56,096 bases of DNA, taken from positions 1 through 56,096 of the forward strand of contig JAYGCV010000090.1 in the NCBI GenBank assembly GCA_046583195.1, in the 5' to 3' direction. How positions within the stretch are numbered: position 1 is the stretch's first letter; each line of letters starts with the position of its first letter. The notes below the pieces were generated by a model. The model did not search any database. It saw only the letters and a list, made by a program, of their open reading frames with translations, and was not told the DNA's origin. Positions 35,599 to 51,861 of this stretch are shown here, in pieces. The position numbers and the translations under genes were made by a program. The DNA comes from Myxococcota bacterium (GTDB lineage Bacteria; Myxococcota_A; UBA9160; UBA4427).

Positions 35599-35740
35599 AA
35601 CGTAAAACGGTAAAACGGTAAAACGGTAAAACGGGGGCGGGTTTTCTTTTTTTCCTTTTCGGTGGGTAGGCCGTGCTCGGCGTGACTCCGGGGCCGAAAA
35701 GGAAAAAAATAAAACCCGTCCCCGTTTTATCCCCGTTTTA
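35596..35740. repeat. REP/REPIN-like long inverted repeat, copy 2, with tandem TAAAACGG end units
   Basis: 36-bp arms 35627-35662 and 35694-35729 (two mismatches), near-identical to copy 1. Four TAAAACGG units plus a partial at 35596-35634; an extra CCGTTTTA at 35733-35740. Confidence 0.88.
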
Positions 35741-36337
35741 GTCCATGGGCTGCCGGTTGCCCAGCGATCGCCCGACGGTGACGTGATCGGCGTACTCGAA
35801 ATCGCCACCCAAAGGCATGCCGCAGGCGATCCGGCTGACGAGGATGCCGGCGGATCGGACGCGCTCGGCGATGAAGTGGGCCGTGGCGTCGCCCTCGGCA
35901 GTGGGGTTCATCGCTAGGACCAATTCCCGAAGGCCCCCCTCGCGGACACGCGCTTCGAGGTCGGCGATGCGCAGATCTTTGGGGCCGATGCCCTCGATCG
36001 GCGAAAGGGCACCGCCGAGCACGAAGTAACGCCCGCTGTAGCTCTGGCTGCGCTCGATCGAGGCCAGGTCGGCGGGTTCCTCGACGACACAGAGTTGCGA
36101 CGCGTCGCGTGTCTCGCTGCGGCAGATCGCGCACGGGGACTCGTCTGTCAGGTTGAAGCACGACTCACAGAGGACAGTGTCCTGCTTGAGTCGGCCGAGG
36201 GCCTGGGCGAGTTCCTGCACCCAGGCGTCGGGGGCGCCGAGCAGAAAAAAGGTCAGCCGTGTCGCCGATTTTTCGCCGATGCCGGGGAGTCGCTTCAGGC
36301 TCGCCACCAGTCTTTCGATGGCCGGGGAGGATTCCAC
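35738..36337 (-). CDS. recR: Recombination mediator RecR
   Basis: LPGIGEKSA HhH, C4 zinc finger and Toprim VEE..NPTAEGDAT. Confidence 0.97.
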   Translation of the reverse strand: MESSPAIERLVASLKRLPGIGEKSATRLTFFLLGAPDAWVQELAQALGRLKQDTVLCESCFNLTDESPCAICRSETRDASQLCVVEEPADLASIERSQSYSGRYFVLGGALSPIEGIGPKDLRIADLEARVREGGLRELVLAMNPTAEGDATAHFIAERVRSAGILVSRIACGMPLGGDFEYADHVTVGRSLGNRQPMD

Positions 36338-36343
36338 GCGGGG

Positions 36344-36673
36344 CTACCCGGTGCCCGTTCCCGGGAAGAGTGACGCGAGGTCGATCCCACCGGAAGCGCG
36401 CTGCAATTCCTCTTGCACGCTCTGCTGCGCATTGCGCAGGGCGGCATTGACCGCCGCGGCCGTGAGGTCCTGGATCATTTCGCGATCCCCGGAATCGTAG
36501 AATGCGGCTTCGATGCGGATTTCGAGGATCTTGAGATCGCCGCTGCAGGCCGCGGTGACCATTCCGGCGCCCGCCGATCCCTCGAAGCGCCGCCTGGCCA
36601 GATCGCGCTGAATCTCCGCCATCCGGCTCTGGAGTTCCCGGGCCCGGCCGAAGAGATCGCCGAGGTCGGTCAC
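36344..36673 (-). CDS. ybaB: YbaB/EbfC nucleoid-associated protein
   Basis: GSAGAGMV and DREMIQDL.AAAVNAAL; dnaX-ybaB-recR synteny. Confidence 0.93.
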   Translation of the reverse strand: MTDLGDLFGRARELQSRMAEIQRDLARRRFEGSAGAGMVTAACSGDLKILEIRIEAAFYDSGDREMIQDLTAAAVNAALRNAQQSVQEELQRASGGIDLASLFPGTGTG

Positions 36674-38439
36674 GGCTTCGCGCCGAGGGGGCGAATCTCG
36701 ACGAGTTGCGCGTCGAGTTCCTTGAGGGCCATGTTGATCGCCTTGTTCTCGAGGGCGTTCTTGCGGTAACGGCGAATGGACTCGCGATCGTTTTCAGGAC
36801 TCGAGAGGCTCTTCGCGCCTCCACCGAGGGCTCTGATTTCGATCTTCATCCGGCTGCCGAAAAAGCGCTCGCAGATGGCGTCGACTTCGCTGATGCGATC
36901 GATGAGGCGCTGGGAGTGGAAGGCGTTGCTGACGCCGATGCACAGCCGGCTGTCCTGGTGCTCGAGCAATTTCCCGCCTTCGAGCGAGGCGAAGAGACCG
37001 CGGTTCTGGTTCTGGGCGAAGGCGCGCAGTCGGTCGAAGACTTCGTCGAGGGAGGCATCGGATTCGATCACCGCGGCCTTGGCGGGCGTGACGGCCGGGG
37101 TCGTGGCGTCGACGACGGGCTGCGTGGCCGTGGCCTCGGCCTTCGGCGCCGGGGTGTCTCCTGGGCCAGCTTTCGTCTCCGGAACGGCGGCGGGGCGGGG
37201 CTTCTCGGGTTCCGGGGCCGGACGCGGCGGGGGGCGCGTGGCTGCCGGGCGTATCGCCGCCACGGAACCTCGACCGCCCTGGATGCTCCCGCTGCCCAGC
37301 TGCTTCTCGAGGGCTTCAAGCTTTGAAACCAATGCGGCGACTTCAACGCCTTCGGGGAGAGAGGCCAGCCGTACCAAGGTCATCTCGAAGACCGCGAAGG
37401 GATGGGGCGCCCAGCCCAGTTCCTCCTGCTCGGTGACCAGCGTCCGGAACATGCGCCGCAGGCGCACCGGATCGGTGGCTTCGGAGAGATCGCGCAGCTG
37501 CTGCAGCTCGTCGTCGTTGCACTCGACGAGATTGGAAGCACCCGGGGCTACGCGCAACACCACGAGGTCCCGGAAGAGCTGCATCAGGTCCGAGGCCAGG
37601 CGGCTGGCTTCGGTGCCGGCCTCGAAGGCACCAGCGCTGGCCTCGAGGGCGGCGGCGGCATCGCCCTCGACGCAGGCCCGGGCGATTGCCAGCAACACCG
37701 ATCGATCGGTGAGGTCGAGGACTTCGGCGATCGAAGCGTCGGAGACATCGGTTCCGCCGTAGGAAAGGATCTGGTCCATCAACGTCTGGGCATCGCGCAT
37801 CGAACCGTCGCCTTCGCGGGCGATGGCGCGCAGGCCGGCGTCGGAAATCGTCACCGACTCCGCGTCGGCGATGGCGCGCAGGCGTTGCGCCACCTGGGTG
37901 ATGGGGATGCGCCGCAGGTCGTAGCGCTGGCAGCGAGACAACACGGTGAAGGGGATGCGCTCTGGCTCGGTGGTGGCAAAGACAAAGAGACTCCGCGGCG
38001 GCGGCTCCTCGAGCGTCTTGAGCAGGGCGTTGAAGGCCGGCTTCGAGAGCATGTGGACTTCGTCGACCACGTAGATGCGATACTTGCCGGGAGAAGGGGC
38101 GTAGCGGATCGACTCGATCAGATCGCGCACGTCGTCGACACTGTTACGGCTGGCCGCATCGATTTCCTGCACGTCCGTTGAGCGACCGTCGGTGATCTCG
38201 ACACACGAGTCGCAGGTGCCGCAGGGTTCTTCGGTCGGGCCCTGCTCGCAGTTCAGGCAGTGCGCCAGGATGCGTGCGAGGGTCGTCTTGCCGACGCCGC
38301 GCGGGCCCGCGAGCAACACCGCATGGGGGACGCGGTCGCTGCGGATGGCGTTGCGCAGCGGTGTGGTGACGTGGTCCTGGCCGATGACCTCGTCAAAGGT
38401 CTTCGGACGCCATTTCCGCGCGATGACTTCGTAACTCAA
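36670..38439 (-). CDS. dnaX: DNA polymerase III subunit gamma/tau
   Basis: SYEVIARKWRP, GPRGVGKTT, DEVHML and SRC; TTG start at 38439. Confidence 0.96.
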   Translation of the reverse strand: MSYEVIARKWRPKTFDEVIGQDHVTTPLRNAIRSDRVPHAVLLAGPRGVGKTTLARILAHCLNCEQGPTEEPCGTCDSCVEITDGRSTDVQEIDAASRNSVDDVRDLIESIRYAPSPGKYRIYVVDEVHMLSKPAFNALLKTLEEPPPRSLFVFATTEPERIPFTVLSRCQRYDLRRIPITQVAQRLRAIADAESVTISDAGLRAIAREGDGSMRDAQTLMDQILSYGGTDVSDASIAEVLDLTDRSVLLAIARACVEGDAAAALEASAGAFEAGTEASRLASDLMQLFRDLVVLRVAPGASNLVECNDDELQQLRDLSEATDPVRLRRMFRTLVTEQEELGWAPHPFAVFEMTLVRLASLPEGVEVAALVSKLEALEKQLGSGSIQGGRGSVAAIRPAATRPPPRPAPEPEKPRPAAVPETKAGPGDTPAPKAEATATQPVVDATTPAVTPAKAAVIESDASLDEVFDRLRAFAQNQNRGLFASLEGGKLLEHQDSRLCIGVSNAFHSQRLIDRISEVDAICERFFGSRMKIEIRALGGGAKSLSSPENDRESIRRYRKNALENKAINMALKELDAQLVEIRPLGAKP

Positions 38440-38483
38440 AGGGGGTGGGGCCTCGCGAATGCTGGGGGCCTGCCCCGGTCCAA

Positions 38484-38587
38484 GATCGCAGGGCACCCCC
38501 GCTTGCGACCGGTCCCCCGCTACCGCTGCTTCCTTCCGGATCTGACGGGGTTCACAAGGTTCCGAGTCCGAGCGGGACCCTGCGATC
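38484..38587 (-). ncRNA. ffs: Signal recognition particle RNA (4.5S)
   Basis: Long hairpin containing GTCAGATCCGGAAGGAAGCAGC (SRP helix 8) with complementary GATCGCAGGG ends; upstream of dnaX. Confidence 0.95.
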
Positions 38588-38805
38588 AAGGTCCGAGACA
38601 GACCCCGGTCGCAATCTACACGGGGCCCTCGGGGCGGTCAATCAGTCGCATCCACCCCGCGCAGCAGAAGGCGGCGTGGCCCCCTGGGGCCGAGCTCGGT
38701 CGCCGGGCCAGCAGGCGCAGCGGGCGTGGACTAGGTTCCGGCCTCCCCGGGCCCGCCGCGATCACAGGCCGATGGCGGCGCGAGGGGCTCGGCAAGGAGC
38801 ATGGA

Positions 38806-39705
38806 ATGCCGGAAGAGCAGGGCGACGCCCGAGATCGGCGCGGCGCCCTCCTGCTGGGCGTGGGGGCCCTCATTGGAATCGGGCTGGCCGCTTCCGGGGC
38901 GTTTTCGCCGGCGGACTTCAACGCGGTGGGGGGCAACGTAATCGCGCGCGTGAACGGCCGTGCGGTCGCCGCCGAGAGCTACGCCCTCGCGCGCGATCGC
39001 CTGGCCCTCGACAAGCGCAACCCGATGACCGACGCCGACCGCGAGCACGTCCTTCGGCGACTGGTCGAAGAGGAACTGCTGATCCAGCGCGGCGAGGCCA
39101 TCGGGCTCGTCGAATCGGAGCCCTCGATCCGGAAGGCGATCGCGGCGGCGATGATCCAGGCCATCGTGGCCGAGAGTGAGAGCCAGCAGCCGGACCGCGG
39201 GGAGCTTCTCGCCTTCTATGAAGAGAATCGCGGTTATTTTACACCGCCGGGCACGCTGCACGTGCGCCAGCTTCGGATTCGCAAACGTGCCGGGGAAGAG
39301 GCCGCCGACTGGCGCGCGCGGGGACGCGAAGCGGCCAGTGCCCTGGCAGCGGGAGAGCACTTCGAATCGGTGGGCGAGCGCCTCGGGGATGCTCCGCTGC
39401 TGGTGATTCCCGACGCCCCGCTGCCTTCGCAGAAGTTGCGACAGTACCTCGGGCCGAGCCTCACGCGTCTCGCGGCCGGGCTGCCGACCGGGTCGACTAG
39501 CGCATTCGTCGAGGCGGAAGACGGCGGGCGCATCCTGCTGCTGGTGGCGGCGACCGAGGGAACGACGCCGGCCTTCGAGGCGATCTCCAATCAGGTCGAG
39601 GTCGCCCACCGCCGCTTTGCGGGGGACCAGGCCCTGCGCGAGGTCCTCGAGAGCCTGTGGCACGACGCTGCCATCGAATTCGCGCCCGGGGCGCCGCTGC
39701 ACTGA
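38806..39705 (+). CDS. SurA-N / PpiC-like peptidyl-prolyl isomerase-family membrane-anchored protein
   Basis: N-terminal TM helix, IARVNG, LVEEELLIQR..IGL and a rotamase-like C-terminal half; coupled to the HupE/UreJ gene. Confidence 0.7.
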   Translation: MPEEQGDARDRRGALLLGVGALIGIGLAASGAFSPADFNAVGGNVIARVNGRAVAAESYALARDRLALDKRNPMTDADREHVLRRLVEEELLIQRGEAIGLVESEPSIRKAIAAAMIQAIVAESESQQPDRGELLAFYEENRGYFTPPGTLHVRQLRIRKRAGEEAADWRARGREAASALAAGEHFESVGERLGDAPLLVIPDAPLPSQKLRQYLGPSLTRLAAGLPTGSTSAFVEAEDGGRILLLVAATEGTTPAFEAISNQVEVAHRRFAGDQALREVLESLWHDAAIEFAPGAPLH

Positions 39706-40937: not shown

Positions 40938-41009
40938 GGCGTCGCGCTTCTGCCGCGCGGCCGTTTCTGCTCGTGACTTCGTGTAGAGTAGCGAGAGGAG
41001 ACGCGGACG

Positions 41010-42782
41010 ATGTCGGATCGTAGCGGCGAGGGCGCAGTGACTGCGGGGACTGAAGCCGCGGAACTCAACCCGCTTGTCGAGAAAGCGCCCGTCGGGGAAG
41101 CGACGGACCTGCCCCGGGCCTTCGCGCTCCTGGCAGAGATGACGCGGCGTTTCGCCGACAGCCTCGAGGTGACGCCGGCGTTGGTGGCGGCCCTCGAATC
41201 GATCGCTGCGCAGCTCGGCGCCGAGGGCGGATCGTTGTGGCTGCGCGACGATCAGGCGGGCGAGGCGGGCGAGATCGTGTGCGAAGCCTCGGTGGGGCCC
41301 GCCGACATCACCGGGCTGCGCCTGTCGATCGAGGAGGGGATCGTCGGGCGCTGCGTCCGCGAGAACGCTTGCCAGAGCGTGTTCGACACGGCCAAGGATC
41401 CCGCCTTCGCAAGCTCGGTGGACAAGGCCTCGGGAATTCGGACGCGCTCGATCCTGTGTGCGCCGATGCCGGGGAGCGACGGCGCCATTGGTGCAGTCGA
41501 GTTGATCAACCGCAGGGAGGGCGATGGCTGCTTCTCTGCCGGGGACCTTCACGTGCTCGAGGTGCTGGCTTCTTCGGCGGCGCTGGCGCTGAGCAATGCG
41601 CGCATGGCGACCGCGGCCGCCGAGCACCGCCGGGTGCAGCGCGAACTCGAGCTCGCAGCCGAGATCCAGCGCGCGTTGCTGCCCGAGGCCGGGGCGGTGG
41701 ACGCGCCGATTCACGGCGAGAACGTCCCCGCGCGAACCGTCTCGGGGGACTTCTTTGACTACCTCGAGCTCTCCGATGGTCGCATCTCGTTCTGCCTGGG
41801 AGACGTCTCGGGGAAAGGCATGAATGCAGCGCTGTTGATGGCGAAGACCGCGAGTCTCTACCGCTGCCTGACGAAAACAATCCCGAGCCCAGGGCGCCTG
41901 CTCGCGGTGATCAACGATGAACTCGCCGAGACTTCCTCGCGCGGGATGTTCGTGACGATGGCCGCGGGGGTCTATGACCCCGCGAGCGGACAGGTCGTGC
42001 TGGCGAACGCGGGCCATGAGCCCCCGCTCTTTCGCAGCACCGACGGAGGTTTTCGGGGGATACCGGCGCTCGAGCCGCCGCTGGGTGTGATCCAGGGGCT
42101 GCTGCCGCCCGAGGGCTACCCGGAAACGACGATCGACCTCGCGGGCGGTCGACTCTTCGTCTTCTCGGACGGGCTCACCGAGGCGATCGGCGCCGACGGT
42201 GAGCAGATCGGTTCCGAGGGGCTAGAGGCGCTCTTCGACGAGTACCAGGAAGACAGCATCGCCGATTGTGTGGCCGCCGTGATCCGTCGCGTTGGCGATC
42301 TCGAGCACCGCGACGACCTCACGCTTCTCGGTCTCGAGCAACGCGCTGGGAGCACATCAGAGGAGCGTGCAGAGGTACTTTGGGAGCACCGCTGCCCCGC
42401 CGAGGCGAAGCAGCTCGCGGGCATTCGCAAGGATCTGCGCGGCGCCCTGGCCGCTGCGGGCCTCGACGACACCCGTGCGGCCGATTTCGTGACTGCGATC
42501 GACGAGGCCTGTCAGAACGTGGTCCGCCATGCCTACGCCGACGCCCCTGTCGGAGACATGCAGGTGACACTGCTGCGCTGCGGCAGCGAGTGGACGCTGC
42601 TGCTGCGCGACTGGGCGCCTCCGGTCGACCCGAGCTGCCTCGATGCCGGACGCGATTTCGACGATCTCCGTCCGGGAGGGCTGGGGACGCGCTTCATGAA
42701 GGAGCTGATGGACGAGGTCTCCTTCGACTCTCCTCCTGCCGGCGGAGGCAATCGGCTCCGGCTCGTGAAGCGGTTATCCTAA
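41010..42782 (+). CDS. GAF - SpoIIE/PP2C phosphatase - RsbW-type HATPase_c kinase fusion
   Basis: GAF (GIVG..RSILCAPM..VELINR); PP2C SGDFFD, GDVSGKG, NAGH, SDGLTEA and RDDLT; kinase DEACQNVVRHAY and PGGLG. Confidence 0.9.
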   Translation: MSDRSGEGAVTAGTEAAELNPLVEKAPVGEATDLPRAFALLAEMTRRFADSLEVTPALVAALESIAAQLGAEGGSLWLRDDQAGEAGEIVCEASVGPADITGLRLSIEEGIVGRCVRENACQSVFDTAKDPAFASSVDKASGIRTRSILCAPMPGSDGAIGAVELINRREGDGCFSAGDLHVLEVLASSAALALSNARMATAAAEHRRVQRELELAAEIQRALLPEAGAVDAPIHGENVPARTVSGDFFDYLELSDGRISFCLGDVSGKGMNAALLMAKTASLYRCLTKTIPSPGRLLAVINDELAETSSRGMFVTMAAGVYDPASGQVVLANAGHEPPLFRSTDGGFRGIPALEPPLGVIQGLLPPEGYPETTIDLAGGRLFVFSDGLTEAIGADGEQIGSEGLEALFDEYQEDSIADCVAAVIRRVGDLEHRDDLTLLGLEQRAGSTSEERAEVLWEHRCPAEAKQLAGIRKDLRGALAAAGLDDTRAADFVTAIDEACQNVVRHAYADAPVGDMQVTLLRCGSEWTLLLRDWAPPVDPSCLDAGRDFDDLRPGGLGTRFMKELMDEVSFDSPPAGGGNRLRLVKRLS

Positions 42783-42860
42783 TTCGCGGCTCCCGGAGTG
42801 GCGCGCGGAGCGCCCCGCCCGGACTGCGGCCGCAAGTCCAAGTAAAGGACACGAGACGCC

Positions 42861-43187
42861 ATGCAGCACGAAGTCCGGGAAGAAGGTGAAACCCTGGTGG
42901 TGGCGCTCGCGGGCGAGATCGACCTCGAACATTCGCCGAAAGCGCGCGAAGTGTTGCTCGAATGTGTCGGGCGATCGCGTCCCATCCTGGTGGATCTCTC
43001 GGGTGTCGAGTACATCGACAGCTCTGGCGTGGCGAGCCTGGTCGAAGCCCTGCAGCAGGCGAAGGCGCGTGGCCAGTCGTTGGCACTGGCGTCGGTGAGC
43101 GCCTCGGCGTTGCGCGTGCTCGAACTCGCGCGCCTCGACAAGGTCTTCACGATCCACGCGAGTGTTGCGGAGGGGCTGGGTGGCTGA
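42861..43187 (+). CDS. STAS domain protein (anti-anti-sigma / MlaB-like)
   Basis: GEIDL and DLSGVEYIDSSG with the conserved Ser. Confidence 0.92.
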   Translation: MQHEVREEGETLVVALAGEIDLEHSPKAREVLLECVGRSRPILVDLSGVEYIDSSGVASLVEALQQAKARGQSLALASVSASALRVLELARLDKVFTIHASVAEGLGG

Positions 43188-43998
43188 ACCCCAGGGCGCA
43201 GCCTCGCGCGCCGGCGCCCTTCTCGAATCCGTCGGGCGCGCGGTCGGCGAACTGCTCGAGGCGGTGGGTGTGGGCGCGTCGTTCTTCGGGCAGTCTTTCT
43301 ACTGGCTTGCAATGGGGCGGCGCCGGCGACAGGTCGTACGCTTCGAATCGATCGTGGCGGAGATGGTCGAAACCGGAATCGGAGCGATCCCGATCGTCGT
43401 GGTGCTCTGCACCACCATCGGCTTGATGCTCGCGCTCCAGGGGATCAACGCCCTCGAGCAGTTTGGCGCACAGCACCAGGTGACCTTCGGCGTGGCCCTC
43501 TCGGTGACGCGCGAGTTTGCACCGCTGATCACCGGGATCGTCGTGGCCGGGCGTTCGGGCTCGGCGCTGGCGGCGCGGATCGGCACGATGACCATCAGCA
43601 ACGAGGTCGACGCACTGCAGGTGATGGGGATCTCGCCGGTGCGCTTTCTGGTGGCCCCGCCGCTATTGGCGATGCTGCTGATGGTTCCGTGCCTGGCATT
43701 GCTGGGGGATATCGTGGCCCTGCTCGGGGCGGGGCTCTACATCACCTCGGATCTCGGGATCTCGATGTCCGCCTACTACCACCAGGTGATGGCAGCGGTC
43801 ACGCTGCGCGATCTCCTGGAGGGGCTCGCGAAGGCCACGCTCTTTGGCGGGCTCACGGCCATCGTTGGCGTGGTGAACGGCGCGCGCGTGCAGGGCGGCG
43901 CCGAGGGCGTCGGCCGTGCCACCACCAACGCGGTGGTGCAGTCGATCGCTTTGATCATTCTCACCGACATGGTCTTCACCTTTGCGACCACCCGCTGA
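43180..43998 (+). CDS. mlaE: MlaE family ABC permease
   Basis: REFAPLIT..AGRSGSALAARIGTM..EVDAL and GGAEGVGRATT; GTG start overlaps the STAS 3' end. Confidence 0.9.
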   Translation: MAEPQGAASRAGALLESVGRAVGELLEAVGVGASFFGQSFYWLAMGRRRRQVVRFESIVAEMVETGIGAIPIVVVLCTTIGLMLALQGINALEQFGAQHQVTFGVALSVTREFAPLITGIVVAGRSGSALAARIGTMTISNEVDALQVMGISPVRFLVAPPLLAMLLMVPCLALLGDIVALLGAGLYITSDLGISMSAYYHQVMAAVTLRDLLEGLAKATLFGGLTAIVGVVNGARVQGGAEGVGRATTNAVVQSIALIILTDMVFTFATTR

Positions 43999-43999
43999 C

Positions 44000-44845
44000 A
44001 TGAGCGTCCCCCAGCCGAGCGATCTTGCCGAATCCGTTGAGTCCGGAGAACTTCCCGAAACCGTGATCCGGGTTCGGGACATGGTGAAGTTCTACGGAGA
44101 CCGCGAGATCCTGAAGGGGATCGACGTGGATATCCGCCGCGGTGAGATCATGGTGGTGATGGGGGGCAGCGGCTCGGGGAAGAGCACCTTCCTGCGGCAC
44201 ATCATCGGTCTCGAGCGGCCGACGTCGGGTTCGATCCAGGTGCTCGGCAAGGAACTGTCCGAGATGAGCGCTCTCGAGACCACCGAGTTCTCGAAAAATA
44301 TCGGGGTTGCCTTTCAGGGAGGCGCCCTGTTCTCGTCGATGACGGTGGGCGAGAACGTGATGTTGCCCCTGCGCGAGCACACATCGCTTGACCCCATGAC
44401 GATGGAAATCATGATGCGGATGAAGCTCGAGGTGGTGAGCCTCTCGGGCTTCGAAGATCTGATGCCCTCGGAACTCTCCGGTGGCATGATCAAGCGCGCG
44501 GCCTTCGCACGGGCCATCGTGACCGATCCCCAGATCCTGTTCTGCGATGAGCCCTCGGCGGGTCTTGACCCGGTGGTTTCGGCGGCCCTTGACGAACTGA
44601 TCCTGCGGCTGCGCGATGCCATGCAGATGACCATCGTGGTGGTCACCCACGAACTCGAGTCGGCATTTCGGATCGCCGATCGGATCACGGTCCTGGACCG
44701 CGGGAAGATCCTGATCACGGGAAGCGTCGACGAAGTGCGGAACTGCGAACACGGGCGGGTGCAGGATCTCCTGAACCGCCGCTTCGAAGAAGAAGAACTC
44801 GACCCCGACGCTTATCTCGAGCGTTTGACCGGAGGAGCACCCTAG
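44000..44845 (+). CDS. mlaF: MlaF/Mkl family ABC ATPase
   Basis: GGSGSGKS, FQGGALFSSM, ELSGGMIKR, DEPSAGLDP and VTHE. Confidence 0.9.
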   Translation: MSVPQPSDLAESVESGELPETVIRVRDMVKFYGDREILKGIDVDIRRGEIMVVMGGSGSGKSTFLRHIIGLERPTSGSIQVLGKELSEMSALETTEFSKNIGVAFQGGALFSSMTVGENVMLPLREHTSLDPMTMEIMMRMKLEVVSLSGFEDLMPSELSGGMIKRAAFARAIVTDPQILFCDEPSAGLDPVVSAALDELILRLRDAMQMTIVVVTHELESAFRIADRITVLDRGKILITGSVDEVRNCEHGRVQDLLNRRFEEEELDPDAYLERLTGGAP

Positions 44846-44897
44846 TGATCTGCACCCAGGGCGAAACAGCGAAATCGAGAACTGGAGGGGCAGCGCA

Positions 44898-45803
44898 ATG
44901 ATCGAAGCGCGGCGCAACTACATCGTCGTCGGGGGCTTCGTGGTGGCGATGCTCACCGCGGGGATCGCGTGGGTCGCGGTCCTCTCCGGGGGCGCAGGCG
45001 CCAACGACGAGTACTGGATCCGCTACGAAAACGTGATGGGGCTCTCCTCCGGGGCGCAGATCCTCTTCGAGGGCTACCCGGTGGGGCGCATCGAGGCAAT
45101 CGCCCCGATCCCGGAAGCCGAGGACGGCGGTTTCCGTCTCGATGTCAGCGTGCAGAGCGGCTGGCCGATCCCGGTGGACAGCCGCGCGGAGGTCACCTCC
45201 GCCGGGCCGCTTTCGGCGGTGGTCGTCAACATCGTTCGCGGCGAGTCGGCACAGGTGCTGGCTCCCGGCAGCGAAATCGCCAGTGACGAATCGCCCGGCT
45301 TGATGCAGGCGCTCTCCTCGGTGGCCGGCCAGGTGGGGGCGCTGACCGCCCAGATCGAACCCGTGCTGGCGAGCCTCGGTGACACGGTTCCGATCATCCT
45401 CGACGATGTGCGCGGGCTCACCGAGCGCCTCAGTGGGGCGGCGGATCGGCTCTCGGCGATGCTCTCGCCCGAGAACGCCGAGCACGTCAGTCGCATCCTG
45501 GCGGAACTCGACAACACCGCGACCAACACCGCGAGGCTCTCCGGCGAACTCGTAGCGACCCGTGCCGAAGTCGACGGACTCCTCGCCTCGATGCAGGGCA
45601 TGGTCGACGAGAATCGACCCGACGTGCGCCAGGCGGTCTCGGACATGCAGACCTCGCTCGCCGTGCTGGCCGACCACATGTCGGCGGTCACGCGCAACCT
45701 CGAGGCGACCATGCGGAACATGAACGAGTTCAGCGCGCAGATTCGGCGCGACCCGAGTCGGCTGATCCTGCCAAGCCGGCCTGCGGACGGGGAGGATCAG
45801 TGA
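44898..45803 (+). CDS. mlaD: Single-MCE-domain MlaD family protein with helical C-terminal extension
   Basis: N-terminal TM helix; GLSSGAQILFEGYPVGRI; heptad-rich helical tail ending RRDPSRLI. Confidence 0.88.
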   Translation: MIEARRNYIVVGGFVVAMLTAGIAWVAVLSGGAGANDEYWIRYENVMGLSSGAQILFEGYPVGRIEAIAPIPEAEDGGFRLDVSVQSGWPIPVDSRAEVTSAGPLSAVVVNIVRGESAQVLAPGSEIASDESPGLMQALSSVAGQVGALTAQIEPVLASLGDTVPIILDDVRGLTERLSGAADRLSAMLSPENAEHVSRILAELDNTATNTARLSGELVATRAEVDGLLASMQGMVDENRPDVRQAVSDMQTSLAVLADHMSAVTRNLEATMRNMNEFSAQIRRDPSRLILPSRPADGEDQ

Positions 45804-46444
45804 TGCCGCACGCTAACGGTCGCCCGCTTCCCCGTTTCCGGGTGGTGCGCTTGGCGGCCTCTCTCGGCGTGGTGGCGGCGCTGGGCTGCGCTTCGACCGC
45901 ATCGCCGCCGGATCGCTTCTACCCGCTCCTGGTGGCGGCACCCACGGTCGGTGCGGGTGCCTGTCGCGTCGAGGGGGTGTTGCAGGTGAACCGTCCGGTG
46001 GCGGACGCCACCACCGACCAGCGCAATCTCGTCTACCAACCGGATCCGACCTCGGCGGAGTTGCGACGCCACACCTTCCACCTCTTTACCGACGTGCCGA
46101 GCCTGCTCTTCCAGGACGAGTTGGCGAGCTATCTGCGGAAGGCGGGCGTCGCCCCCACCGTGGTGACACCCGACCTGCGGGCGCGCGCCGATTACGCCCT
46201 CAACGCCCGGATCGTGACCCTGCACCGCGTTCTGGGTGACCCGGCACGCGCCGAAATCGGCATCGAACTCAGCCTGGTGCGTCTGCGCGACCGCAAGGTC
46301 CTGGTGCAGGCGACCGAGTCGGCCTCGCTGCTGGCACCGGATGTGGAGTCGGCGGTAGCGGCCTACGGCGCGGCGGCGGGGACGCTCTTTGACGCCTTCT
46401 TGCGCGACTGCAGCCGCCAACTGGGGGGTCGGAGCGACGGCTGA
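45803..46444 (+). CDS. PqiC-like ABC transport auxiliary lipoprotein
   Basis: Lipobox ALGC followed by PPDRFYPL; typical position after an MCE gene. Confidence 0.75.
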   Translation: MPHANGRPLPRFRVVRLAASLGVVAALGCASTASPPDRFYPLLVAAPTVGAGACRVEGVLQVNRPVADATTDQRNLVYQPDPTSAELRRHTFHLFTDVPSLLFQDELASYLRKAGVAPTVVTPDLRARADYALNARIVTLHRVLGDPARAEIGIELSLVRLRDRKVLVQATESASLLAPDVESAVAAYGAAAGTLFDAFLRDCSRQLGGRSDG

Positions 46445-46456
46445 CGCGGCCGCCCG

Positions 46457-48073
46457 CTAGCCGTGGATGCGCCTTTCGCGGCCGGCCCAGGCAGCCTCGC
46501 GCAGCTTGAACTTCTGGATCTTCCCGGTGGCGGTTTTTGGGAGTTCGCCGAAGGTCACCGCCTTCGGACACTTGAAATGCGAGAGGCGCTCGCGGGCGAA
46601 GGCGATCAGAAGAGCCTCGGTGAGGAAGGTCCCCGGCTTCTTGGTGACGAAGGCCTTCGGAACCTCGCCCCACTTCTCGTCGGGAATGCCGACGACGGCG
46701 ACTTCCTGCACATCCGGGTGTTGGTAGAGCGTGTTCTCCACCTCGATCGTCGAGATGTTCTCGCCCCCGGAGATGATGATGTCCTTGCTGCGATCACGAA
46801 GCTCGATGTAACCGTCGGGGTGCACTACCCCGAGGTCGCCCGAGTGGAACCAGTCGCCGCGAAAGGCTTCGGCGGTCGCTTCGGGATCCTGGAAGTAGCC
46901 GAGCATCACGTTGTTCCCGCGCATCACGACTTCGCCGATGCTGCGGGTGTCGGCGGGCACGTCGTTCATCGCTTCGTCGACCACGCGCAAGTGGATTGCA
47001 AAAAGGAAGGGCACCCCCTGGCGCGACATCAGCCGGGCCCGTTCCTCGAGGTCGAGGTCTTCCCACCCGTCCTGGATCTCGCAGACGACGTGGGGGCCGT
47101 AGGTTTCGGTGAGGCCGTAAAGGTGGGTGACGCGGAAGCCCAGCCCCTCCATGCGGGCGAGCAGCGTGGGCGACGGCGGGGCGCCGCCGGTGCAGACGCG
47201 GATCGGGGGGTCAAAGCGGCGGCCTTCGGCGGCGGGGTCGGAGCCGAGCATCAGCAGCACCGTCGGCGCGCCGTTGAAGTGCGTGACCCCGTGCTCGTCG
47301 ATCAAGCGGAAGACCTCGGGTGGGTCGATCGCGCGAAGGCAGACGTGGACGCCTGCGGCACCGGTCACCGCCCAGGGCATGCACCAACCGTTGCAGTGGA
47401 ACATGGGCAGCGTCCACAGGAAGGTGGTGCGTTTCGAGAGTTCGTGGGCGCTGATCTGCCCCAGGGCATTGAGGGCCCCGCCGCGGTGACTGAACATCAC
47501 ACCCTTGGGGCGGCCCGTGGTGCCAGAGGTGTAGTTGATCGAGAGCAGGGTGTTCTCGTCTTCGAGGTGCGATTCGATCGGGAGCACTTCGGCGCCCGAG
47601 AGAAAATCGTCGTAGGTCGCGGCCCCCTCGCGCGCACAGACGCTCCCGTCGGCTACCTCGATCACGCGCTCGAGAGTGTCGATGCCGCCGAGGACCCCGT
47701 CGAGGGCCGGTGCCAGTTCGGGGTCGACGAGCAGCATGCGCGCCCCCGAGTGCTCGAGGATATAGGCGATCTCCGCGGCACCGAGGCGCGTGTTGATCGA
47801 GACGAGCGGGGCCTCGATCAGCGGCAGCGCGAAGTGCGCCGCCAGGTGAACGGGGGTGTTGGGGAGCAGGACTGCGACGCGATCGCCGGCCCCGATTCCC
47901 GCGCGGCGCAGGGCGCCCGCCAGACGGCCCACTTCCTGGCCGAAGCGCGCGTAGTTCCAGCGGAGGTCGCCGTGGACGATCGCAGCGCGATCCGGGAACA
48001 CCCGCAGTGTGCGCTCGAGCAGGGTGATGGGAGTGAGCGGGTCGTTTGAAACCGCGGGATGCGAGATGGCGAT
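46457..48073 (-). CDS. Acyl-CoA synthetase (AMP-binding enzyme); start uncertain, probably non-canonical ATC at 48073
   Basis: YTSGTTGRPKG, YGLTE, HSGDLG, DRSKDIIISGGENI and PKTATGK. The family-like PLTPITLLERT lies upstream of the GTG at 48001. Confidence 0.9.
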   Translation of the reverse strand: MAISHPAVSNDPLTPITLLERTLRVFPDRAAIVHGDLRWNYARFGQEVGRLAGALRRAGIGAGDRVAVLLPNTPVHLAAHFALPLIEAPLVSINTRLGAAEIAYILEHSGARMLLVDPELAPALDGVLGGIDTLERVIEVADGSVCAREGAATYDDFLSGAEVLPIESHLEDENTLLSINYTSGTTGRPKGVMFSHRGGALNALGQISAHELSKRTTFLWTLPMFHCNGWCMPWAVTGAAGVHVCLRAIDPPEVFRLIDEHGVTHFNGAPTVLLMLGSDPAAEGRRFDPPIRVCTGGAPPSPTLLARMEGLGFRVTHLYGLTETYGPHVVCEIQDGWEDLDLEERARLMSRQGVPFLFAIHLRVVDEAMNDVPADTRSIGEVVMRGNNVMLGYFQDPEATAEAFRGDWFHSGDLGVVHPDGYIELRDRSKDIIISGGENISTIEVENTLYQHPDVQEVAVVGIPDEKWGEVPKAFVTKKPGTFLTEALLIAFARERLSHFKCPKAVTFGELPKTATGKIQKFKLREAAWAGRERRIHG

Positions 48074-48103
48074 GACGGTTCCCCTTTTTCGGATTGGCTG
48101 GTT

Positions 48104-49375
48104 TCAGGCGGCCGAAGCCATCCGGCGAAGCTTCAACTGTCGCGGTCCACGGATCAAGAACGAGTGGATACGCGGTACCGGCCCCTCGATCTCGAGGGCC
48201 GAGAGTCGCGGCACCAGGCCTTCGAGGGCTGCGCGCGCTTCGAGGCGCGCCAGCGAAGCGCCGAGGCAGAAGTGTGCGCCGAAACCGAAGCCCAGGTGGC
48301 CCGAGCGCGAGCGGCCGAGGCGGAAGACGTCGGGATCGTCGAACTGGCGCTCGTCGCGATTCGCGGAGCCGAGGAGCGGGACGACGATTTCACCCTTCGC
48401 GATGCGGGTGCCATTGATCTCGGTGTCGCAGGTCGCCTCGCGAAAGAGCAACTGGATCGGCGCGTCGTAGCGGAGAGCCTCCTCGATCGCCTCCGGGACG
48501 AGCGAGAGGTCGTCTTCGACGGCCTTCCGGGCTTCGGGATGCTGCAACAGGGCCAGCGTCGCATTGCCGATCAGGTTCGTGGTGGTCTCGTTTCCTGCCA
48601 CCATCAGCAGGGTGACGAAGTTCACCACATCCAGGGTCGAGAGGCTCTCCTCGCCGGCGTTCCCGTGAACGATCGTGCTGATGAGATCGTCGCCCGGATG
48701 TTTCGCGCGCTGACGGGCGATGCGGCTGAAGTAGGTGACCAGTTCGAGGAAGGTCTTGAAGACCCGCGCTTCAAAGGGGGCGTCGCGCCCCGGCCCGGTG
48801 GAGACGTCTACGATGGCGTCGGACCAGCGCTTGAAATCTTCGCGTTTGCCAACTTCGATGCCGAGGATCTCGCAGATCAGGCTCACTGGAAGGGGAATGG
48901 CGAGATCGCGAACCAGGTCGAAGGGGCCGCCGGCGTCGAGGATCTGCATCGAGACCGCGACGAGTTCGCGCGCCTGCACTTCCAAGCGAGCCACCTGGCT
49001 CGGGGTAAAGCCGCGGTTCACGATGTTGCGCATCTCAGCGTGCGGAGGGCCGTCCTCGGAGATCAGGTTGCGACCATTCTGCATCCGGTAGGGATTGACG
49101 CGCGCGCGCAGGATCAGCCCGAAGAAGAAGCGCAGCGCCGGAAGGGAGAGCGGCGGGCGCTCGCTGCGACCGCCATTCATCAAGAAGGTGCGCATCGCGC
49201 TCGAGGAGAACGTGTCCGAATCCTTGAGCACCGCGGCGACGTCTTCGTAGCGGGCGATGCAAAGGGCGCCGGTGCTCGTCGAGCGGTGGATCGGGGCTTC
49301 GTCGCGCAGCTGGCGGTAGAAGGGATAGGGATCGGAGACGTCGGGGTGATGGCAGGGGTCGAATTCGATCGTCAT
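48104..49375 (-). CDS. Cytochrome P450
   Basis: AGNETT I-helix, EALR ExxR motif and heme motif FGFGAHFCLG. Confidence 0.96.
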   Translation of the reverse strand: MTIEFDPCHHPDVSDPYPFYRQLRDEAPIHRSTSTGALCIARYEDVAAVLKDSDTFSSSAMRTFLMNGGRSERPPLSLPALRFFFGLILRARVNPYRMQNGRNLISEDGPPHAEMRNIVNRGFTPSQVARLEVQARELVAVSMQILDAGGPFDLVRDLAIPLPVSLICEILGIEVGKREDFKRWSDAIVDVSTGPGRDAPFEARVFKTFLELVTYFSRIARQRAKHPGDDLISTIVHGNAGEESLSTLDVVNFVTLLMVAGNETTTNLIGNATLALLQHPEARKAVEDDLSLVPEAIEEALRYDAPIQLLFREATCDTEINGTRIAKGEIVVPLLGSANRDERQFDDPDVFRLGRSRSGHLGFGFGAHFCLGASLARLEARAALEGLVPRLSALEIEGPVPRIHSFLIRGPRQLKLRRMASAA

Positions 49376-49489
49376 CTCGGGATCTCGGGGTCCGCTTGCG
49401 TGCGCGCGGGCCCAGCATAGCCGCTCGTGGGGCCCTGGAGGCCGGCCGGGGCGGGGTAGGCCCTCGACGCGGGGAGGGCGAGGCGTCAG

Positions 49490-49515
49490 ACTGGAACGCG
49501 TTTCAGTTCTAGAAC
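49490..49515. promoter_or_regulatory. Palindromic operator matching the KstR consensus TnnAACnnGTTnnA
   Basis: TGGAACGCGTTTCA at 49492-49505 lies within the near-palindrome ACTGGAACGCGTTTCAGT, followed by the palindrome GTTCTAGAAC; divergent P450/ACAD intergenic region. Confidence 0.65.
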
Positions 49516-49539
49516 CGGCCCCAACCGGCGAGGCAAACG

Positions 49540-50718
49540 ATGTACATCGGATACGACGACGAGCAGGAGGCGCTGCGACGCGAACTCCGCGCGTACTACG
49601 AAAAACTGCTCACCCCCGAAACCGTTCAGGAACTTCGCCGAGGCGAAGGCGTGGGCGAGGCGATGCGCCGGGTCGTACGGCAGATGGGCGAGGATGGTTG
49701 GCTGGGCATCGGCTGGCCCGAGGAGTACGGCGGCCAGGGTCGCTCCGTCATGGAGCAGTTCATCTTCTTCGACGAGTCGATGAAGGCCGGCGCCCCGGTC
49801 CCGATGCTGACGATCAACAGCGTTGCCCCCACGTTGATGCAATACGGCAGCGATGAACAGAAGGCCTTCTTCCTGCCGAAGATCCTGAAGGGCGATCTGC
49901 ACTTCTGCATCGGCTACACCGAGCCGAATGCGGGGACCGATCTGGCCTCGCTCACGACCCGCGCCGATCGCGACGGCGACGATTGGGTGATCAACGGGCA
50001 GAAGGTCTTTACCAGCCTCGCCGGCGACGCCGACTACGTGTGGCTTGCGGTTCGCACCGACCCAGAGGTCGCGAAGCACGAGGGACTCTCGCTCTTCGCC
50101 GTGGAAATGAAGACCCCGGGAATTTCAAAGGACCCGATGGATCTTCTCTCGGACCACGATATCCACACCACCTACTACGACAACGTGCGCGTTCCGGCCT
50201 CGGCCCTCGTCGGTGGTCTGAACCGCGGCTGGCGTCTGATCATCAACCAATTGAATCACGAGCGCGTCACCCTCTGCTCGCCGGGGATGCTCGAGGGCGT
50301 TTATGACGAAACCGTCCGGTGGGCACGCGAAACGCGGCGTCCGGACGGTCGGCGCGTGATCGACGACGAGTGGGTGCAGGTGAACCTGGCACGTGTGCGG
50401 GCTGGCCTCGAGTTTTTGCGGCTGATCAACTGGAAGGTGGCGTGGACGGGAACCCAGGGGAGGCTCGACGTGGCCGATGCCTCGGCGGTCAAGGTCTTCG
50501 GGACCGAGTTTTACATGGAATCGTTTCGCCACCTGATGGAGGTGCTCGGGCCCCGCGGCTACCTGGCCCCGGGATCGCCCGGAAGCGCCGTTCGCGGCCA
50601 CCTCGAGACCCTCTACCGCAGTCTTTTGATCTTGACCTTCGGCGGCGGCACCAACGAGATCCAGCGCGACCTGATCGGAATGTTTGGCCTCGGCCTGCCG
50701 CGGGCGCCGCGGTTCTAG
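49540..50718 (+). CDS. Acyl-CoA dehydrogenase, FadE26/ChsE4-like
   Basis: GAPVPMLTINSVAPT, GYTEPNAGTDLA, QLNHERV, WVQVNLARV and LILTFGGGTNEIQRD closely resemble mycobacterial FadE26 as recalled. Confidence 0.88.
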   Translation: MYIGYDDEQEALRRELRAYYEKLLTPETVQELRRGEGVGEAMRRVVRQMGEDGWLGIGWPEEYGGQGRSVMEQFIFFDESMKAGAPVPMLTINSVAPTLMQYGSDEQKAFFLPKILKGDLHFCIGYTEPNAGTDLASLTTRADRDGDDWVINGQKVFTSLAGDADYVWLAVRTDPEVAKHEGLSLFAVEMKTPGISKDPMDLLSDHDIHTTYYDNVRVPASALVGGLNRGWRLIINQLNHERVTLCSPGMLEGVYDETVRWARETRRPDGRRVIDDEWVQVNLARVRAGLEFLRLINWKVAWTGTQGRLDVADASAVKVFGTEFYMESFRHLMEVLGPRGYLAPGSPGSAVRGHLETLYRSLLILTFGGGTNEIQRDLIGMFGLGLPRAPRF

Positions 50719-50730
50719 GGGGAAGAAAGA

Positions 50731-51861
50731 ATGGATTTCGCCTACAGCGACGAACAGGGTGCGATCAGCGAACTCGCGCGGAAGATCTTCAGCGATCGGG
50801 TCCAGCCCGACGGGCTGCGAGCGCTCGAGCGTTCCGAGGCGCCGCGCTTTGACGAGGGTCTCTGGAGGGCACTGGCCGATGCGGGCCTGGTGGGCATCGC
50901 GATCCCCGAGGCCGAGGGCGGGGGCGGACTCGGTTTTCTCGAACTGTCGGTGATCCTCGACGAACTCGGCCGCGCCGTGGCCCCCGTGCCCCTCTACGAA
51001 TCGTTGGTGCTGGGTTCGCTGCCGCTGGTGGAGTTTGGCAGCGACGCGCAGCGCGAGCGTTGGCTGCCGGCGATGGCCTGCGGCGAGGCGATCTGGACCG
51101 CGGCGTTGCAGGAGCCCGAGGCTTCGGCGGCGGCACCCGAGACGCGGGCGCGAGCGGTGGAAGGCGGCTTTGAGCTTTCGGGCGAGAAGATCGGTGTGCC
51201 GGCAGCGGAACTCGCCAGCGGAATCTGGACGCCAGCGCTCCTGGAAGACGGAAGCGTTGGAATCTTCGGGCTCGACCCGACGGTGAGCGGTGTCGAGATC
51301 GTGCCGGTCGTGACCACGAGCGGACAGCCCGAGGCGATGCTGCGACTCGATGGCGCCCGGGTAGAAGCAGAAGCGAGGCTCGCACCGGATAGGGATGGCC
51401 TCGAAGTGATTGACTGGATTCGCCTGCGCGCCACTGCCGGGCTGTGCTCGATGGCGGCCGGCGTCTGCCAGATCGCCCTCGATCTGACTGCCGAGTACGT
51501 AAAGACGCGAAAGCAGTTCGACCAGCCGATCGCGATGTTCCAGGCCGTCGGGCACCGTGTCGCCGACGCCTACATCGATACCGAGTCGGTGAAGCTTTCG
51601 GCCCAACAGGCGGCCTGGAGAATCGGGGCAGGGCGGCCCGCCGAGGCGCAGGTGGCGATCGCAAAATTTTTCGCGGCGGAGGCGGGCAACCGCGTGGTGT
51701 TGGCGGCGCAGCACCTCCACGGGGGCATAGGGGTTGATCGCGACTACCCGCTGCACCGCTACTACCTCTACGCGAAGCAGATCGAGTTGACTCTCGGCGG
51801 CGCCAGCTACCAGCTGCGCACCCTCGGTCGCATGCTCGCCGACGAGGGCGCGTCGACCTGA
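50731..51861 (+). CDS. Acyl-CoA dehydrogenase, FadE27/ChsE5-like partner subunit
   Basis: MDF start, RFDEGLWRAL, RKQFDQPIAMFQAV and HLHGGIGVDRDYPLHRY; tandem with the FadE26-like gene. Confidence 0.85.
   Translation: MDFAYSDEQGAISELARKIFSDRVQPDGLRALERSEAPRFDEGLWRALADAGLVGIAIPEAEGGGGLGFLELSVILDELGRAVAPVPLYESLVLGSLPLVEFGSDAQRERWLPAMACGEAIWTAALQEPEASAAAPETRARAVEGGFELSGEKIGVPAAELASGIWTPALLEDGSVGIFGLDPTVSGVEIVPVVTTSGQPEAMLRLDGARVEAEARLAPDRDGLEVIDWIRLRATAGLCSMAAGVCQIALDLTAEYVKTRKQFDQPIAMFQAVGHRVADAYIDTESVKLSAQQAAWRIGAGRPAEAQVAIAKFFAAEAGNRVVLAAQHLHGGIGVDRDYPLHRYYLYAKQIELTLGGASYQLRTLGRMLADEGAST

Follow-up and report, generated by a model that had tools for sequence, protein, structure and literature searches.

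Partner switching is the function of the RsbU-RsbV-RsbW and SpoIIE-SpoIIAA-SpoIIAB systems of Bacillus. Among partner switches whose output is not a sigma factor, SypE of Vibrio fischeri is a dual serine kinase/phosphatase that phosphorylates Ser56 of SypA (PMC8256260), SiaC of Pseudomonas SiaABCD activates the cyclase SiaD (PMC8457831), and phosphorylation inactivates the STAS-like protein of Anabaena HenR/All4160 (bioRxiv 10.64898/2026.04.08.717354). A STAS protein is also found in the MlaFEDB lipid transporter of Escherichia coli, in which MlaF does not stay on the complex without the STAS subunit MlaB; phosphoregulation of MlaB was raised in the same work as no more than a possibility, with neither a kinase nor evidence of phosphorylation at hand (Kolich 2020, PMC7367683). 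Casali and Riley drew attention in 2007 to MCE operons in which STAS and permease are fused, and Brucella abortus has an Mla-Pqi chimeric (Mpc) system with a long MCE protein, MpcD, of 331 amino acids (aa), compared with 183 aa for MlaD (PMC12436622). Here, a cluster of six genes is described that encodes a partner-switching module together with such a transporter. It occupies positions 41010-46444 (+ strand) of contig JAYGCV010000090.1 of a Myxococcota bacterium (assembly GCA_046583195.1); the stretch studied, called the window below, is this entire contig of 56,096 nucleotides (nt), C92 in this analysis. It is fairly likely that phosphorylation of an MlaB-like STAS subunit gates the lipid transporter encoded here.

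In the proposed mechanism, the output of the partner switch would be an envelope-spanning MCE lipid transporter of the Mpc type and not a sigma factor, and the STAS protein would substitute for MlaB, or for the MlaE-fused STAS domain of Mpc systems. With Ser54 unphosphorylated, the helical face of the STAS protein (helices 1-3) would bind the helical subdomain of MlaF, and the bound STAS protein would support the assembly or the ATPase activity of the MlaF2E2 core. Phosphorylation of Ser54 by the kinase domain, inside this interface, would release the STAS protein and thereby shut down the transporter, and the PP2C domain would reverse this phosphorylation. The GAF domain would bind a small ligand and set the balance between kinase and phosphatase. 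The evidence is computational throughout, in that gene content, motifs, linkage and single-copy status were read from the genomes and the STAS-MlaF interface was modelled; from it we infer the phosphorylation of Ser54, its effect and direction, the signal of the GAF domain and the lipid substrate. A first-pass annotation of this DNA had already proposed a self-contained switch that gates lipid transport, and conservation, genome-wide uniqueness and the structural model support that proposal, for which the chances are put at somewhat better than even.

Gene organization

The six genes lie on the same strand (+), have a third-position G+C content of 0.78-0.88, and were all found where the first-pass annotation had placed them. 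The features are as follows:

41010..42782, + strand: GAF-PP2C-kinase fusion gene, 590 aa, with Pfam matches and AGGAG before the ATG
41187..41597, + strand: GAF domain, aa 60-196 of the fusion protein (GAF_2, E 2e-12)
41772..42338, + strand: SpoIIE/RsbU-type PP2C phosphatase domain, aa 255-443 (PF07228, E 4e-41)
42396..42770, + strand: RsbW/SpoIIAB-like GHKL serine kinase domain, aa 463-587 (HATPase_c_2, PF13581, E 7e-24)
42861..43187, + strand: STAS gene of the RsbV/SpoIIAA type, 108 aa, single domain (STAS, E 4e-21)
43180..43998, + strand: MlaE-family permease (PF02405, E 7e-68), alternative start GTG 43162
44000..44845, + strand: MlaF-type ATP-binding cassette (ABC) ATPase, 281 aa from ATG 44000, longest open reading frame (ORF) from TTG 43982
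44898..45803, + strand: MCE/MlaD-type protein, 301 aa (PF02470, E 1e-10)
45800..46444, + strand: PqiC/YmbA-family (ABC_trans_aux) lipoprotein, 214 aa (PF03886, 28.7 bits, cut-off 26)
40941..40961, + strand: weak terminator-like hairpin between a HupE/UreJ-like gene and the fusion gene

Taken together, the six genes form a single operon-like unit. The longest mlaE ORF opens at GTG 43162, and a second GTG at 43180 lies 7 nt after GGAGG (43169-43173); with the latter start, the 8-bp overlap of the STAS gene (stop codon 43185-43187) with mlaE holds, as first reported. For mlaF, ATG 44000, which is 2 nt past the mlaE stop, is a likelier start than TTG 43982. The last 4 bp of the MCE gene also belong to the lipoprotein gene.

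Conservation of the linkage

A forward scan with the fusion protein (one genome per species) yielded 273 relatives, and the top 80 of them were retained. In 47 of these 80 loci (L004-L050), the match, at 40-71% identity, extended across the phosphatase and, if the contig reached that far, across the kinase as well. In the remaining 33, the match was confined to the phosphatase or the GAF part, and none of them had an MlaE match nearby. A reverse scan from MlaE identified 13 loci, and all 12 of the close homologues (52-78% identity) carried the module upstream; the thirteenth, in a Bacteroidota metagenome-assembled genome (MAG; 30% identity), was without it. The reverse scan added five genomes and the missing half of one split MAG, and the final tally was 53 loci from 52 other genomes, each count taking only those loci whose DNA continues. 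The phosphatase and kinase were followed by both the STAS gene and MlaE in every one of 48 loci, and by MlaF in 43 of 44. For the MCE protein the count was 41 of 42, and for the lipoprotein it was 40 of 41; tblastn identified 31 of these 40, and the other nine were abutting lipoprotein ORFs, of which Pfam confirmed three. This arrangement is far beyond chance. Conservation of the linkage, which the first-pass annotation had named as a check on its proposal, is thus borne out by STAS and MlaE (48/48) and by the reverse scan (12/12).

The sole exception is the locus of Magnetospirillum sp. UT-4 (L046), where the DNA 2 nt past mlaE is a C-terminal fragment of hypF. At L046:7977-12769, the C-terminal half of hypF is followed by hypD and a hypE-like ORF, and MlaF, the MCE protein and the lipoprotein are missing. 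The joint is either a deletion or rearrangement, or an assembly chimera.

Carriers of the module belong to Myxococcota, to Alpha- and Betaproteobacteria (labelled Rhodospirillales, Magnetospirillaceae, Rhodocyclaceae, Azonexaceae and Comamonadaceae) and, with one MAG, to Desulfobulbia. Among them, Telmatospirillum siberiense 26-4b1 (L030) and also Paramagnetospirillum caucaseum SO-1 (L015) are cultured and non-pathogenic, which makes the hypothesis directly testable. Further copies were labelled Opitutales (L013), Spirochaetales (L024/L089) and Patescibacteria (L027). The L013 MlaF nests among Myxococcota rows in the MlaF tree, and the L024/L089 and L027 copies, which are not among the tree rows, resemble Myxococcota ones by identity; all of these are probably mis-binned contigs. 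Within the phylum of the host, the module is patchy, being present in 16 of 401 sampled genomes (host included), in one of 25 genomes of the host's own family and in nine of 11 in one other family.

These counts bear on a rival explanation, namely that the switch is a conventional one that acts on a target elsewhere, be it an unlinked sigma factor (one of the FliA-like ones, for instance), some anti-sigma factor or a different enzyme, that the module does no more than share an operon with the transporter, and that the STAS protein is not a transporter subunit. Three observations speak against such an output: in either direction of the search, module and transporter co-occur completely, across several phyla or classes; the STAS gene overlaps mlaE; and among 52 loci neither a sigma factor nor any other regulator has a conserved place next to the module. 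An ECF-like sigma match was present in one of the 52 related loci, about 5 kb off. All-against-all clustering of 848 flank ORFs from the 52 loci revealed no conserved flank gene families; the biggest cluster at first sight, with 10 loci, consisted of lipoprotein genes that tblastn had missed, and the next covered 7 of 52 loci. What favors an output elsewhere lies in the subfamily of the STAS protein and in the rest of the genome, and is considered with them below.

The STAS protein and its predicted contact with MlaF

The STAS protein is a single-domain antagonist with a conserved phosphorylatable serine. Its DSSG motif spans residues 53-56; D53, S54, S55 and G56 were invariant in 35 of 35 aligned orthologues, and DSSG was present in all 42 sequences listed. 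Of the two serines, only the first (Ser54) was matched in the alignment to the solved antagonist TM1442, and Ser54 is therefore the likely phospho-acceptor, as judged from the alignment. By gene position, the protein corresponds to MlaB, in that it is encoded within the transporter operon (with the 8-bp overlap in the window, and beside MlaE in 48 of 48 loci); by sequence, it is not a member of the MlaB family.

Three metagenome proteins of about 250 aa (P0003, P0005 and P0006) are kinase-STAS fusions of the same subfamily; P0003 was checked, and each comes from a single contig. With the phosphatase-kinase fusions counted in, all three parts of the module occur joined in pairs somewhere. Long STAS+MlaE proteins (P0001, P0007 and P0009) had been considered as Rosetta-stone evidence and were dropped, for they contain Arg-rich, out-of-frame-looking stretches and come from one contig each; they are treated as frameshift or gene-calling artefacts, and the kinase-STAS fusions look cleaner than these.

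Modelling of STAS with MlaF, likewise suggested by the first-pass annotation, predicted the contact. The two-chain model used a 35-row alignment for each chain with the rows in matching order, and the ipSAE was 0.86 in three of three runs, compared with 0.01 for the best of three controls. The partner pLDDT was 92, and the runs agreed in at least 93% of contacts. Of 80 solved complexes, 58 attained the pass mark, as did 2 of 110 mismatched pairs; this calibration is rough, since own alignments were used. In the model, the STAS protein sits on the helical subdomain of MlaF via helices 1-3, and Ser54 is in the interface. The interface consists of STAS residues 21-29, 53-62 and 82-92 and MlaF residues 128-145, 174-176 and 203-209, nearly all of which are invariant in the family; conservation of this STAS face is also what binding to the kinase and phosphatase would predict. 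Since a like complex has already been solved, the pass indicates likeness and is not proof. This high-confidence predicted placement of STAS on MlaF, with its clean controls, is a further point against an output outside the transporter.

A second rival accepts the STAS protein as a subunit and assigns it another logic: phospho-STAS may be the active form, STAS may inhibit MlaF, or STAS may stay bound and its phosphorylation tune the ATPase rate and not the binding. Near Ser54, the modelled interface contains the invariant MlaF residues K142 and R140, and also D131 and D176, which is consistent with this explanation. Phosphorylation of the conserved Ser of Bordetella BtrV is said to promote BtrW binding (PMC8256260), and the T52A variant of E. 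coli MlaB is non-functional and still binds MlaF in an inactive complex (quoted in Kolich 2020, PMC7367683). On the other hand, the MlaB-MlaF pull-down was weaker with the phosphomimetic T52E of E. coli MlaB, the experiment that comes closest to a precedent for release upon phosphorylation, and in classical systems phosphorylation disrupts partner binding (PMC7367683). A different logic of this kind is considered quite improbable, and release of STAS from MlaF upon phosphorylation of Ser54 is preferred.

The sensor, phosphatase and kinase protein

The first-pass annotation described a GAF-PP2C-RsbW fusion with metal-ligand motifs in the phosphatase and N and G boxes in the kinase. The fusion is present in this genome and is not general among the relatives, the phosphatase motifs and the kinase N and G2 boxes are conserved, and the G1 box reads D-x-A. 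The phosphatase is of the SpoIIE/PP2C serine type, and its motifs SGDF[FY]D, GDVSGKG, AGH[EQ]P, DG[LV]TE and DDLT were invariant or nearly so in 44-47 sequences; we take the Asp residues of these motifs to be the metal ligands. In the kinase domain, E499 and N503 of the N box were invariant (46 sequences), H507 was present in 43 of 45, and the G2 box RPGGLG was invariant or nearly so (44 sequences). D534 of the G1 box was invariant and was followed by x-A in 32 of 44 sequences, including the fusion protein, and by x-G in the other 12. The NCBIfam RsbW models scored far under their cut-off on this domain (41.8 vs 145), and in a search of solved chains it was matched by the RsbW chain 6m36 (E 4e-6). 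For the phosphatase and kinase part together, the closest solved chain was Rv1364c (3ke6).

The best PDB sequence matches of the GAF domain were cyclic-nucleotide GAFs of phosphodiesterases and of the adenylate cyclase 1ykd. Its residues N167, F175 and D179 were invariant or nearly so in 47 relatives, and the host genome encodes four class III cyclase domains. The GAF ligand is possibly a cyclic nucleotide, a lead drawn from these sequence comparisons.

Phosphatase and kinase shared one frame in 16 of 47 loci, with two more reading through to the contig end, and occupied two adjacent frames in 28 of 47, one of these in three frames; the remaining locus ends too early to be assigned. The five added loci, with two separate matches each, are probably split. 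In a Propionivibrio MAG (L049:5947-7570), the phosphatase gene is spread over three frames, and it is either a frameshifted or decaying copy or a sequencing error. A tree was built by a quick method from MlaF of 35 module-linked sequences in which STAS and MlaF were intact (L012 was left out), with two paralogues as outgroup. On this tree, the state changed between fused and split at least six times, and three of these changes were forced by well-supported branches. The six-gene form of the window is consequently one of two interchangeable forms, and the wider family has seven genes. Such repeated fusion and splitting fits two activities that act on one substrate.

The composition of this protein also bears on a third explanation, in which information flows in reverse: the STAS-MlaF contact would report the nucleotide or load state of the transporter to the kinase and phosphatase, and the output would lie outside the cluster. 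The modelled MlaF-facing side of the STAS protein includes the target residue of the kinase, and MlaF and the kinase would presumably compete for STAS, judging from the solved SpoIIAA-SpoIIAB complexes. The kinase-STAS fusions P0003, P0005 and P0006 also fit. However, the fusion protein has no output domain besides the kinase and phosphatase, the genome has no second STAS substrate, and nothing else is conserved nearby. Reverse flow is regarded as highly unlikely, and control of the transporter by the module remains the preferred direction.

The transporter

MlaE exceeded the cut-off of TIGR00056 (213.1 vs 212.2 bits). The best NCBIfam match of MlaF was the MlaF model PRK11831, at 192.6 bits and under the cut-off of 441. 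The protein has an LSGGM signature, with S160-M163 invariant in 35 sequences, and a C-terminal extension with a Y-x-x-R-L segment, in which Y272, R275 and L276 were nearly invariant (35 sequences). The MCE protein consists of an N-terminal membrane helix, one MCE domain (aa 38-114) and a long C-terminal part; it matched TIGR00996 at 69.5 bits (under the cut-off), and weak helical-repeat matches covered aa 136-283. The C-terminal part would form a helical needle. The lipoprotein has the lipobox ALGC in its translation. No MlaC or MlaA genes were found in the cluster.

The first-pass annotation spoke of an Mla/MCE lipid transporter, and in this respect it has to be corrected, as the build is that of an Mpc system and not of classical Mla. 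The cluster combines an MlaE-type permease and an MlaF-type ATPase (the latter under the equivalog cut-off) with a single-MCE protein of 301 aa that has a long C-terminal extension, and a PqiC-like lipoprotein is encoded by the last gene. The STAS domain is not fused to the N-terminus of the permease; it is encoded by a separate gene here and in all of the 48 loci. The transporter is thus of the Mpc kind with STAS as a separate gene. Precedents for a STAS-MlaE fusion are MpcE of Brucella and a paralogue on contig C122 of the same genome, the latter with a weak STAS_2 match.

Related genes in the host genome and the output of the switch

The host genome is 95.6% complete. Its only PF01740 STAS domain and its only SpoIIE phosphatase are those of this locus, as is its only strong HATPase_c_2 match (two weak ones lie in frames of 498 and 736 aa). 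With one PF01740 STAS in the genome, the kinase and phosphatase have one recognisable substrate, which is encoded beside mlaE.

Three MlaE loci were found in the genome, namely a classical mlaFED set (C99), an Mpc-like set (C122) and the set of the window. The window MlaE shares 38% identity with the fused C122 paralogue and 33% with the other, compared with 48-78% with module-linked orthologues in other classes; for MlaF, identity to the two paralogues is 47% and 43%. The Mpc-like operon (C122:9143-12703) comprises an MlaE ORF of 403 aa, MlaF, an MCE protein of 317 aa and a PqiC-like lipoprotein. The N-terminus of its MlaE ORF has a weak STAS_2 match (25.9 bits, under the cut-off) with D-S-T at the place of DSSG. 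Because the genome has one kinase, this fused STAS might be a second kinase substrate. The classical set (C99:42266-46236) consists of mlaF-mlaE-mlaD (MlaD of 154 aa), followed by a 288-aa ORF, and no STAS gene was seen there.

No sigma gene is encoded with the module. The first-pass annotation had noted none in the window, and this holds for Sigma70_r2, which has no match on this contig (sigma-54 was not searched for), and the one match among 52 related loci is the ECF-like one about 5 kb off. All 11 Sigma70_r2 matches of the genome are on other contigs, and two of these sigma-70-family genes look FliA-like by a reading of the sequences.

Several points weigh against control of the transporter by the STAS protein, and many of them favor a conventional switch with its output elsewhere. 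The STAS protein passes the 'anti-sigma factor antagonist' model TIGR00377 (87.3 bits, cut-off 53.45) and fails the MlaB model NF033618 (27.4 bits vs a cut-off of 90); by sequence, it is an antagonist of the RsbV/SpoIIAA type and not MlaB. Its closest solved relatives are TM1442, SpoIIAA and RsbV, solved MlaB chains match its profile at 24-25 bits vs 86 for TM1442, and a BLASTP comparison of it with the STAS part of the fused C122 paralogue yields no match. The kinase domain resembles RsbW, and its best named relatives are anti-sigma factors, all under cut-off. It could in principle bind one of the two FliA-like sigma factors, and ATP binding is assumed for a domain with the D-x-A form of the G1 box described above. 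HsbA is a Gram-negative switch protein with an unlinked target. Known Gram-negative switches use unlinked targets, and the target of SypA is not known (PMC8256260). Apart from this alternative, the L046 locus holds the module and MlaE without MlaF, the MCE protein or the lipoprotein, the score of the STAS-MlaF model may profit from likeness to the solved E. coli MlaFB complex, and the central residue of the STAS protein may do more than gate binding, since T52A of E. coli MlaB binds and is non-functional. Weighed with the complete co-occurrence, the overlap with mlaE, the flanks without conserved regulators and the modelled contact, a conventional switch with an unlinked output is considered unlikely, and the transporter is the preferred output.

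Flanking regions

The upstream neighbour of the fusion gene is a HupE/UreJ-like membrane protein gene, and the downstream neighbour of the lipoprotein gene is a convergent acyl-CoA synthetase gene. Adjacency to these two genes is common only to the closest relative (L004 = L084, 81% identity). The hairpin at 40941..40961 is a possible upstream boundary of the unit; a scan of the region for promoters and terminators gave chance-level counts, with 3 terminator-like sites vs 2.8 expected. Directly past the transporter, at 46457-51861, an acyl-CoA synthetase (-), a cytochrome P450 (-) and two acyl-CoA dehydrogenases (+) make up a fatty-acid-type cluster. Farther upstream, dnaX (clamp-loader tau/gamma), ybaB/ebfC and recR occur in their usual order at 35738-38589 (-). 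A SurA-like/PPIase ORF at 38260-39705 (+) overlaps almost fully a 323-aa ORF at 38731-39702 (-) that has no Pfam match. Third-position G+C is high in both, and the antisense ORF is probably a shadow ORF of a high-GC genome.

Comparison with known systems

Partner switches with outputs other than sigma factors, fused phosphatase-kinases and STAS-permease fusions are already known. What is proposed as new here is the class of output of the partner switch and, on the transporter side, an Mpc-type system whose free STAS subunit would be controlled by phosphorylation. The first-pass annotation knew of no such system, and the literature searches agree: no link of an Mla/MCE transporter to a kinase or phosphatase was found in the literature covered, which left most subscription journals and supplements outside its scope. 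The words 'kinase' and 'phosphatase' do not occur in the main text of a phylogenomic survey of Mla components, and 'Mla', 'ABC transporter' and 'lipid' do not occur in a review of STAS-only proteins (PMC8256260). There is about an even chance that this is the first bacterial ABC transporter to be gated by a dedicated partner switch, in which an RsbV-type STAS protein would alternate between its own kinase and the MlaF ATPase of an envelope-spanning lipid bridge and a GAF-sensed metabolite (possibly a cyclic nucleotide) would toggle lipid transport within seconds without transcription, and that the STAS subunits of Mla and Mpc systems are relics of switches that have lost their kinases. If true, MlaB would keep a Ser/Thr at the center of its MlaF interface because it is a relic of a phospho-switch, membrane transport would join sigma factors and a few enzymes as an output of partner switches, and there would be a handle on when cells run an Mpc-type lipid bridge. 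The family, which encodes kinase, phosphatase, sensor, STAS protein and transporter together, is a natural system for the phosphoregulation hypothesis.

Like the Bacillus RsbU-RsbV-RsbW and SpoIIE-SpoIIAA-SpoIIAB switches, the module has a SpoIIE-family PP2C phosphatase, a HATPase_c_2 GHKL serine kinase and a STAS protein with a phospho-Ser motif. In contrast to them, it has no encoded sigma factor, carries a GAF domain on the phosphatase, has its kinase and phosphatase fused in this genome, and has ABC transporter genes as its conserved neighbours. In Rv1364c of Mycobacterium tuberculosis, in SypE, and in HsbR of the Pseudomonas HsbR-HsbA system, too, one chain unites a PP2C phosphatase with an RsbW-like kinase, and both act on a STAS protein or domain. 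Their sensor is a REC or PAS domain, whereas it is a GAF domain in the window protein, and the domain order of SypE differs. Their outputs are biofilm or sigma-linked regulation and not a transporter. SiaABCD and HenR/All4160 are alike in that a kinase and a PP2C phosphatase set the state of a phosphorylatable STAS-like protein, whose direct target is a protein outside transcription; these targets are a diguanylate cyclase and an enzyme of polysaccharide biosynthesis, whereas the target proposed here is the ATPase of an ABC lipid transporter.

Both E. coli MlaFEDB and the window set contain an MlaE permease, an MlaF with LSGGM and a C-terminal extension, and a single-domain STAS protein (PMC7367683). 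In the solved E. coli MlaFB complex, the helical face of MlaB rests on the helical subdomain of MlaF with Thr52 at the center, as in the model presented here, and the 'handshake' extension of MlaF (Tyr261, Leu265 and Leu266) docks at the MlaF-MlaB groove, which the Y272-x-x-R275-L276 segment of the window MlaF recalls (PMC7367683). Unlike MlaB, the window STAS protein is RsbV-like by sequence, is encoded upstream of mlaE and is accompanied by kinase and phosphatase genes of its own; the gene of the long MCE protein is followed by that of a PqiC-like lipoprotein, and the cluster contains no MlaC or MlaA. The Mpc system of B. abortus (MpcEFDA) is similar in its MlaE-type permease, MlaF-type ATPase, long MCE protein and PqiC-like lipoprotein encoded last, and it differs in having STAS fused to the N-terminus of MpcE, with no kinase or phosphatase described (Lannoy 2025, PMC12436622). 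Compared with the Brucella system, the STAS protein of the window is a free protein of a different subfamily and has a dedicated phospho-module.

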